From: Magallana gigas
Taxonomy: Eukaryota
DNA length: 64,000 nucleotides
Assembly: GCF_963853765.1 (NCBI RefSeq)
Contig: NC_088861.1
Location: 21,484,281 to 21,548,280, forward strand
Direction of reading: 5' to 3'
The notes under the pieces are model-generated. The model searched no databases. It was not told the DNA's origin and saw only the letters and a list, made by a program, of their open reading frames with translations. The position numbers and the translations under genes are program-made. Below, in pieces: positions 13,195 through 14,720 of this stretch; positions within the stretch are counted from its first letter, which is position 1, and every line of letters begins with the position of its first letter.

Positions 13195-13457
13195 AAACAC
13201 GTATGACCAGTTGTGACTGAGGCTTTAACCTCCTCCGGCATCCAAAACCTATGGCTCAGGTTCAGCATCCATGCTTGTCAGGTGCATCAGTATCATAAGA
13301 CACACCATCCATTCAAGTTTGGTGAAGTTAGGACCAGTAATAGCTAGAACTGTCCTAATGGGACTAATACCTCCACAAGGCTAATTTCAAAAGGGGACAA
13401 ATAATTGAATTGAATAATTAAGGTTTCGAAGATACAAATAAAAAAATTCTAGAATTG

Positions 13458-13462
<5 letters not shown>
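13195..13462 (+). repeat. Composite interspersed repeat (R1 + R2); R2 also at 34655-34790
   Basis: 13335-13462 (CTAGAACTGTCCTAATGGGACTAATACC..CAAGGCTAATTTCAAA.GGGACAAATAATT..TTCTAGAATTGTAAAA) matches 34655-34780. Confidence 0.5.
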
Positions 13463-13495
<33 letters not shown>

Positions 13496-14017
13496 GAACA
13501 ATAGGTATGATAAAATCAGCTTAATGGAGTCACAATACAAACTATCTGGACAATGTACAATAATACATGAAGATCCGGTATAAATAAAATCCATTTTTAT
13601 GGTCATATCAAATGTTGAGTATTGCAGTTCTCAAAAAGATCCTTAACAATAGTTTATATATGGGATATAAACTCTATACCTTCTTGTGAGGCCAAAGAAT
13701 TGTCCTGGGCTTAACAATTATTATCTGGCTGATTAGTTTCTGAGAAGAAGATTTTAAAGATTTACTCTATATATTCCTATGTTAAACTTCGACCCCCCAT
13801 TGTGGCCCCACCCTACACCCGGGGGTCATGATTTTTTACAACTTTGAATCTACACTACCTGAGGATGCTTTCACACAAGTTTCAGCTTACCTGGTCTTAT
13901 GGTTCTTGATAAGAAGATTTTTGAAAATTTCTCGAAAATATTCATAAATTCCTTATTATCTCCCTTTACAAAAGGGCGTGGTCCTAAATTTTCACAACTT
14001 TGAATCCCTTAGGCTAA

Positions 14018-14064
<47 letters not shown>

Positions 14065-14159
14065 GAAGATGTTGAAAATGTGAAAAGTTTACAGACGGAC
14101 AGACAGACGGATGACATACAAAATGTGATCAGAATAGAAAGCTCAGGTGAGCTAAAAAA
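13463..14159 (+). mobile_element. Helentron/HINE-like non-autonomous element b (~0.7 kb)
   Basis: Its 5' end is CAAGAGGCCCATGGGCCACATCGCTCACCTGAG. Internally it has 1-2 units of the ~160-bp satellite (..TATATATTCCTATGTTAAACTTCGACCCCCCATTGTGGCCCCACCCTACACCCGGGGGTCATGATT..) and (GACR)n at 14090-14115. Its 3' end is GATCAGAATAGAAAGCTCAGGTGAGCTAAAAAA, so CTCACCTGAG and CTCAGGTGAG form a terminal inverted motif. Confidence 0.6.
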
Positions 14160-14720
14160 GAAAATAGGTAACAAAGAAAAATTAAAATCAAAATTGTCAG
14201 AATTTCACTGTATGTATATGTATAACAGTAATACATTTACAAATATATGTATCTGATGATTTTTTTTTATTTTATTGTTTTAGACAAACCAACACAATGA
14301 GAATAATTCCACCCTTTGCAGTAAATGGAAATACCAGTAGCCAAGCAATGCTCTTCTGTTGATAAAACTTTGAACACCTTTCTAATAAGAGTCTTGACAG
14401 ATGTTTCTCCTATGGTACATTGGAACTCCATATCAGAAAATTGATCCCATAGGACTATGATTTTCTTTGATGAGCTTGTCAAATTTAATAAACTCCCAAA
14501 ACATTACCCTAAATAATTACCATACTATGTAAAAATATGTAAAAAAAAAAAAAAGTTTTAATTGACAAAAAATTTTAAAATTGCCAAAAACACTACAATC
14601 TTATCAGTAATTTTGAATTTCATTTAAATCAATGCCCCATATGGTCACTTCATCAATTTACTTGACTAATAAATTTTAAAAACTTCTAAAAATAGTTAAC
14701 TTCTTTATTAACAAGAGATG
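14160..14720 (+). repeat. Interspersed repeat R3, copy 1 (copy 2 at 35592-36180)
   Basis: A collinear match of about 560 bp starts GAAA(ATAGGTAACAAA)GAAAAATTAAAATCAAAATTGTCAGAATTTCACTGTA and runs to ..TTAACTTCTTTATTAA. Confidence 0.6.

Follow-up and report, generated by a model that had tools for sequence, protein, structure and literature searches.

Helentrons carry T-strings that are part of the element and variable in number (Thomas et al. 2014, PMC4067079), and the HINE / DINE-1 elements of the same report have complementary 11-nt subterminal inverted repeats (subTIRs), a hairpin at the 5' end, a microsatellite, a short palindrome at the 3' end and T residues bordering the element on either side. 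Central tandem repeats are frequent in such elements and not universal, being described for "some copies" (PMC4067079), and single 2-kb cores are also on record (PMC8268682). Insertion of the oyster element Cg_HINE into T-rich sites and into other repeats has already been reported (2020, PMC7492417). Among elements with other target rules, Kolobok duplicates TTAA and has RR...YY termini (PMC9587614, PMC6004289), and the ends of piggyBac conserve a first C and a last G (PMC5381638).

The window analyzed here, a stretch of 64,000 nucleotides of Magallana gigas DNA, is AT-rich (~32% GC), and short tandem-repeat arrays with units of 161-172 bp are abundant across it. A pair of sequences, R2 and R3, occurs in it twice, and on each occasion a different mobile element lies between the two (Table 1). 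It is probable (roughly 0.85, by our estimate) that R2 and R3 lie in a Helentron-type element, HINE-U, and that copies 1 and 2 of this element each later took an independent nested insertion in the A/T-rich linker, a Cg_HINE-type Helentron in the first case and a Kolobok-type MITE in the second, each by its own target rule.

Table 1. Positions of HINE-U copies 1 and 2, their inserts and adjoining elements in the window.
Feature	Position	Strand	Observations
R2 of copy 1	13344..13462	-	HINE-U 3' terminal module (3' subTIR, short palindrome, ...CAGTTCTAG end) and first linker A's; 88% to 34650-34773; same terminus in 11 copies, flanks different
Insert 1, putative non-autonomous Helentron of Helitron-N2_CGi / Cg_HINE group 1 type	13463..14160	-	Box 2 38/39, Box 3 89%, CgiSat01b 95-98%
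Insert 1, Box 2	13462-13500 (read 13500-13462)	-	38/39 to published Box 2
Insert 1, CgiSat01b monomer	13725-13894		~1 monomer, 95-98%
Insert 1, Box 3	13955-14090 (read 14090-13955)	-	89% over 137 nt
Insert 1, GACR microsatellite (+ strand reading)	14091-14111		
Insert 1, Box 1 remnant	14124-14154		
Insert 1, T-string	14154-14159		G14160 uncertain
R3 of copy 1 (linker and HINE-U body)	14161..14714	-	85% to 35589-36155; collinear with L003 and other copies
Second, different HINE family abutting the truncated end of copy 1	14713..15333	-	CAAGAG end, TATGCCCCCC / GGGGGGCATA inverted repeats, 161-bp repeat x3.1, ACCG microsatellite
R2 of copy 2 and linker	34650..34784	-	A-run 34767-34777; left TTAA 34781-34784; subTIR AATACCCCCGCAA at 34672-34684
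Insert 2, 803-bp MITE	34785..35587	.	TTAA duplication 34781-34784 and 35588-35591; non-coding
Right TTAA and HINE-U copy 2 body, to the body/5'-module boundary	35588..36711	-	95% collinear with L003 to 36711; TATA 36708-36711
Non-coding element between copy 2 body and 5' module	36712..46272	.	9,561 bp; 712-bp terminal inverted repeats, 99.86% identical; TATA duplication 36708-11 and 46273-76
HINE-U copy 2 5' module (LF)	46277..46380	-	5' subTIR TATACCCCCGC, hairpin partner GGGGGGTATA, GTCY microsatellite, GTAGACGCAACTGTGTCCCCCC

The R2-R3 pair and its uninterrupted copies

Self-BLAST of the window aligns 13344-13465 with 34650-34773 (R2; 88%, 125 bp, E 1e-37) and 14169-14714 with 35589-36155 (R3; 85%, 580 bp, E 0). 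The order and orientation of R2 and R3 are alike in both copies, and outside R2 and R3 no further homology between the copies appears in this comparison within 5-10 kb on either side. The two copies of HINE-U are ~86% identical (12-15% diverged) and lie 21 kb apart. The gap between R2 and R3 measures 691-698 bp in copy 1 (~0.69 kb; 13463-14153/14160) and 803 bp in copy 2, where a TTAA stands on each side. The original prediction had read the joined R2 and R3 as a repeated unit, with junctions at 13462/14160 and 34780/35592; self-BLAST and external copies confirm the unit, and the coordinates were right to within a few bases.

Further copies were sought in public assemblies. A 78-aa ORF on the minus strand of R3 led to two predicted proteins, and these, with the members of their clusters, led to contigs L001, L002 and L005-L008; L003 was retrieved by a 22-mer scan of metagenome contigs, and L009-L018 came from a second ORF of 40 aa that occurs on more than 80 contigs. 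(A junction-proximal 25-mer had no match in metagenome contigs, and the scan of genome contigs gave none either.) At nine independent loci (L002, L003, L007, L009 and L013-L017), with flanks that are mutually unrelated, R2 is joined directly to R3 as ...TTCTAGAATTGT-A(8-20)-T(T)AG-TTAA-CAAAGAAAAATTAAAATC..., the A-run varying among copies from A8 to A20 and the TTAA being single in every uninterrupted copy. It follows from these nine loci that R2-R3 is one contiguous sequence and that neither arm is part of either insert, and, from the one TTAA in the empty sites, that the MITE duplicated a single TTAA.

The original prediction had proposed a search for empty R2-R3 junctions and had allowed that none might exist, R2 and R3 then being parts of the inserts; the search turned up these nine. 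R2 and R3 would on that account be the outer portions of longer composite elements. The same R2 and R3, however, surround two unrelated inserts, and both insert 1 and the MITE have siblings without R2/R3 flanks. Together with the nine loci where R2 meets R3 and no insert intervenes, these siblings refute the composite explanation, to which we assign practically no probability.

The host element HINE-U

Judged by its layout, R2-R3 appears to be the 3' part of a dispersed, non-coding, non-autonomous Helentron-type element of ~1.36 kb, for which we use the name HINE-U. That the unit is repeated had been correctly seen in the original prediction; its extent of ~1.36 kb and its apparent nature, a Helentron-type element in its own right with R2 as the 3' terminal module, had been missed. 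Read on the minus strand, HINE-U consists of a 5' module (subTIR TATACCCCCGC, hairpin, GTCY microsatellite), a unique 1.26-kb body that includes R3 and has an internal T-tract followed by TTAA, and a 3' module, R2, which has subTIR GCGGGGGTAT, a small palindrome and ...CAGTTCTAG as its end. On this strand the 3' end is fixed as ...GCGGGGGTATTAGTCCCATTAGGACAGTTCTAG, and TT comes next in 10 of 11 copies, the flanks being otherwise unrelated. (Copy 1 is the only copy whose 3' flank does not begin TT.) The 5' module is fixed as TATACCCCCGC-AAACGAAGTTTA-GGGGGGTATA-TTGGTTTCACCCT-(GTCY)n-GTAGACGCAACTTTGTCCCCCC, and a T precedes it at all five of five loci. The subTIRs, TATACCCCCGC at the 5' end (46368-46380; also in L013, L015 and L016) and GCGGGGGTAT at the 3' end (34672-34684), are complementary at 12 of 13 positions. 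The 5' hairpin, after which the GTCY run follows, has a folding energy of -9.9 kcal/mol (z = -3.3); the 3' palindrome, GTCC-CATTA-GGAC, has a 4-bp stem and is no more stable than shuffled sequence (z = -0.3).

HINE-U has in common with HINE / DINE-1 (Thomas et al. 2014, PMC4067079) the complementary subTIRs, the 5' hairpin, the microsatellite, the short 3' palindrome and, at the loci counted above, T residues next to its ends. Unlike those elements it has a 1.26-kb core of unique sequence, with no tandem repeats found in the body, and this core resembles the single 2-kb "monomer" elements on record for CgiSat48. K-mers of HINE-U are absent from the CgiSat consensus set, and a full-text literature search for terminal sequences gave nothing relevant. 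Also considered for R2-R3, and dropped, were a TTAA-flanked element with piggyBac-like ends, as there are no terminal inverted repeats, and a classical Helitron with a CTAG end, since its 5' end lacks TC and its layout is better matched by a Helentron.

Copy 2 of HINE-U is complete. When 36712-46276 is removed, the window aligns without a break to L013 and L015 across the entire 5' module (the continuity of body and 5' module was established through contigs carrying another ORF, and a protein search with the ORF that bridges the two had no match). Two later insertions, the MITE and the 9,561-bp element, have spread this copy over 11.7 kb, the 9,561-bp element having entered a palindromic CTATAG target. 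The 9,561-bp element looks very recent, and its interior has no ORF of at least 90 aa. Inside it there is inverted symmetry between 38826-38994 and 44062-44230, with AG/GA microsatellites at 38474 and 44257. A head-to-head fusion, a palindrome deletion and an inversion were considered for the junction at 36711 and dropped, as a plain 9.56-kb insertion with TATA duplication explains it. Copy 1, on the other hand, is truncated at 14714, which is position 839 of the reference copy L003, and HINE-U is not resumed beyond the second HINE that abuts it there (14713-15333).

Other features lie close to the two copies. A HINE-like element at ~12150-12995 combines a GACG/GACA microsatellite with 3.5 units of a 172-bp repeat (96% identical) and with a hairpin, GTCCCCGC...GCGGTGGGGGAC, and it is bracketed by a 109-bp direct repeat (11483-11591 and 13238-13346, 88%) that abuts the 3' end of copy 1 and is presumably "R1". 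About 1.1 kb upstream of copy 2, the only ORF of at least 150 aa in the window (33021-33527, plus strand) has a weak exonuclease match (RNase_T, PF00929, E 2e-07) and may be a gene fragment or exon.

The 78-aa ORF on the minus strand of R3, and the same orientation of two copies only 21 kb apart, would suit a segmental or tandem duplication of a genomic locus, for example of paralogous gene introns, in which R2-R3 had never been mobile. The ORF, however, matches nothing in Pfam and has a frameshift in copy 2, no homology extends beyond the unit, and at least 11 copies have identical termini and unrelated flanks. The differing flanks refute a duplicated locus, which we hold to be very improbable, and R2-R3 is best treated as part of the dispersed element HINE-U. 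The ORF itself (14216-14450, minus strand, and homologous positions) is 64-83 aa long and open in many HINE-U copies (P0001, P0002 and P0004-P0007). In copy 1, 26 bp that copy 2 and the external copies possess are deleted here. The ORF may derive from a captured fragment or be due to chance. In the Logan contigs L009, L010 and L011 a HINE-U copy follows, on the downstream side, an uninterrupted ORF of 525 aa whose product has fatty-acyl-CoA-reductase domains (NAD_binding_4, Sterile), and so is apparently located in the 3' UTR of a transcript. Contigs L001, L005, L012 and L018 represent a HINE-U lineage that lacks the T-tract and the 3' module and whose surrounding sequence on both sides is rich in ACCCCAAGGATACC-like motifs, which could reflect truncation or insertion into another repeat.

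The two inserts

Insert 1 had been labeled Helentron-like and insert 2 a TTAA-flanked MITE, and both labels are correct. From its matches to Box 2, Box 3 and CgiSat01b (Table 1), insert 1 would be a known non-autonomous Helentron of Crassostrea gigas, of the Helitron-N2_CGi / Cg_HINE group 1 type. Its minus-strand order is T-string, 5' subTIR AGCTCACCTGAGC, GTCY microsatellite, about one 166-bp monomer, 3' subTIR CTCAGGTGAGC, palindrome GGCCCATGGGCC and the end ...CTCTTG. It has Box 2, Box 3, the ends of Box 1, the GTCY microsatellite, a Cg170-type monomer (CgiSat01b) and the 3' palindrome GGCCCATGGGCC in common with Cg_HINE (PMC7492417; Tunjic-Cvitanic et al. 2021, PMC8268682), and like Cg_HINE it occupies a T-rich target without target duplication. 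Unlike the published Cg_HINE, it is limited to about one satellite monomer, and its Box 1 hairpin is missing the inner part: of Box 1, the initial 14 nt and the final 13 nt remain, and ~13-17 nt between them are deleted. Box 1 is intact in three sibling copies within the window (91-98%). The 3' palindrome of insert 1 has only a 4-bp stem and is no more stable than shuffled sequence.

The siblings of insert 1 in the window provide five 3' termini and three 5' ends. The five other Box 2 ends begin at the identical base, always after an A, and all four 5' ends have T5-7 ahead of AGCTC, which agrees with the T-strings of variable number in PMC4067079. The target of insert 1 is the A8-20 run, and comparison with the nine empty sites shows nothing duplicated, with a boundary that is ambiguous by up to 6 T. 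This right-hand boundary, the 5' end of the element, falls somewhere from 14153 to 14160, and homopolymer on both sides prevents a closer placement; G14160 is missing from all empty sites. Additional full or partial elements of the Helitron-N2_CGi type occur at 19511-21690, 50285-51866, 47579-47779, 18570, 5800 and 48134. Elements of this type in the window carry CgiSat09 or CgiSat01a arrays or are isolated Box 2 ends, at a density of ~1 end per 10 kb, and the array at 20592-21407 is 94-99% identical to CgiSat09, CgiSat09 arrays in the window matching at 96-99% overall. These satellite matches also point to C. gigas, or a very close relative, as the source of the DNA.

The terminal inverted repeats (TIRs) of insert 2, the MITE, agree at 32 of 33 positions at their tips and are ~78% identical over ~180 bp, the ends being 5'-AG...CT-3' (AGCTATAC...GTATAGCT), and the element has no ORF of note. 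Contig L004, reached via one protein that was found by a profile of two TIR-derived peptides, has one full and one partial copy of the MITE, 97% identical to the copy in the window. All three insertions seen (one in the window, two in L004) are flanked by TTAA, and the 97% identity suggests that the family is young and makes it plausible that its insertions are polymorphic for presence or absence. In L004 (1-1402) the two copies are opposite in orientation and 53 bp apart, each with its own TTAA.

Because it duplicates TTAA and has AG...CT ends, which conform to 5'-RR ... YY-3', the MITE is most likely a Kolobok derivative and would behave as one. With Kolobok-derived MITEs such as the Xenopus T2-MITE (PMC6004289) it shares the TTAA duplication, the AG...CT ends, the lack of coding capacity and a high similarity between copies; it differs from them in its long TIRs of ~180 bp and in having no AGGRR motif. 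Neither its TIRs nor its ends occur in the published KolobokP consensus sequences. With piggyBac-derived MITEs it shares the TTAA duplication and the presence of TIRs, but the conserved first C and last G are missing, and its first base A and last base T rule against assignment to piggyBac.

Neighboring targets and the hotspot question

Alignment to uninterrupted copies places insert 1 inside the A-run and insert 2, to its right, at the TTAA 3-4 bases past the run, so that the insertion points are ~10-15 bp apart. The tetranucleotide of copy 1 that is homologous to this TTAA reads GTAA (14168-14171). The original prediction spoke of the same insertion site, which does not hold, since A-run and TTAA are not homologous bases; it also spoke of two different elements and of independent insertions, and the element types at copies 1 and 2 do differ. 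Of the "clean before/after pair" that it expected, the TTAA target stands, but the two copies in the window make a poor pair, with 12-15% divergence and an A-run that ranges from A8 to A20. Aligning filled with empty sites fixes the target duplication of the MITE as TTAA; the Helentron boundary, for the reasons just given, stays ambiguous by ~6 bases.

In copy 1, a Helitron-N2_CGi / Cg_HINE-type derivative would have entered the T-tract without target duplication, presumably by rolling-circle, single-strand transfer into a T-T site as described for Helentrons. In copy 2, a Kolobok-type MITE would have entered the neighboring TTAA and duplicated it, presumably by DDE cut-and-paste with a 4-bp staggered cut. 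This transposition chemistry, like the existence of autonomous partners, is what we infer; the anatomy, termini, target sequences, empty sites and family matches were observed as such. The two sites are close together because the longest T-tract of HINE-U adjoins a TTAA. The shared 700 bp contain 9-17 TTAA sites and 21-25 A/T runs of at least 4, with ~10% of pairs within 25 bp of each other, and the presence of six Box 2 ends in the window implies that the landing of a HINE in a given 1.3-kb repeat is not a rare event.

A rival explanation would be that the HINE-U linker, through its long poly(dA:dT), is a true hotspot of insertion or breakage for multiple families, with open chromatin, DNA structure or fragility acting as a shared local cause beyond the sequence motifs. 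Non-U sequence starts inside one 62-bp stretch at 4 of 12 loci (the HINE of copy 1, the MITE of copy 2, L010 and the L001/L005/L012/L018 lineage), and only two breaks are found elsewhere. L010 and its allele L009, 97.7% identical, diverge exactly at the T-tract, and the L001/L005/L012/L018 lineage loses HINE-U 36 bp further on. At least four of six breaks within 62 bp correspond to p = 0.007 under a uniform null, which however takes no account of the preference for T-rich runs documented for Helentrons, and an a-priori test from which the two discovery events are subtracted gives p = 0.033. Nine of the twelve loci, on the other hand, are uninterrupted at the linker; the events in L010 and the L001 group could be deletions, truncations or artifacts of assembly; the external contigs, short and chosen via an ORF with the longest first, bias the breaks that can be seen; and the hypothesis is post hoc. 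We therefore regard a hotspot of this kind as unlikely.

The breaks do cluster more than the uniform model predicts, and pure coincidence is therefore not the whole story. The clustering near the T-tract is mild (p about 0.01-0.03), suggestive but weak, and the T-rich preference of Helentrons would largely explain it. The original prediction had left a choice between an A-rich hotspot and independent insertions: independence is borne out, while a hotspot beyond known target preferences is weakly supported by the p values of 0.007 and 0.033. That the poly(dA:dT) tract and the adjacent TTAA form a recurrent insertion or breakage site for several transposon families, with four of twelve loci broken within 62 bp, is in our view a doubtful proposition.

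Known kinds of elements have here made nested insertions in an oyster genome dense with transposons; the arrangement is ordinary and the phenomenon already known. Its significance lies mostly in annotation: exact ends and targets are available for three elements, the apparent "flanking repeats" turn out to be, as far as their structure tells, a 1.36-kb Helentron-type element, and the nesting of oyster Helentron derivatives and a TTAA-type MITE is displayed cleanly. A preference for landing or breakage at long T-tracts, if true, would help to account for the density and nesting of Helitrons/Helentrons in C. gigas. If the linker is indeed a recurrent site, Helentron derivatives would invite nested insertions into themselves and contribute to the growth of composite repeat clusters in the oyster genome.
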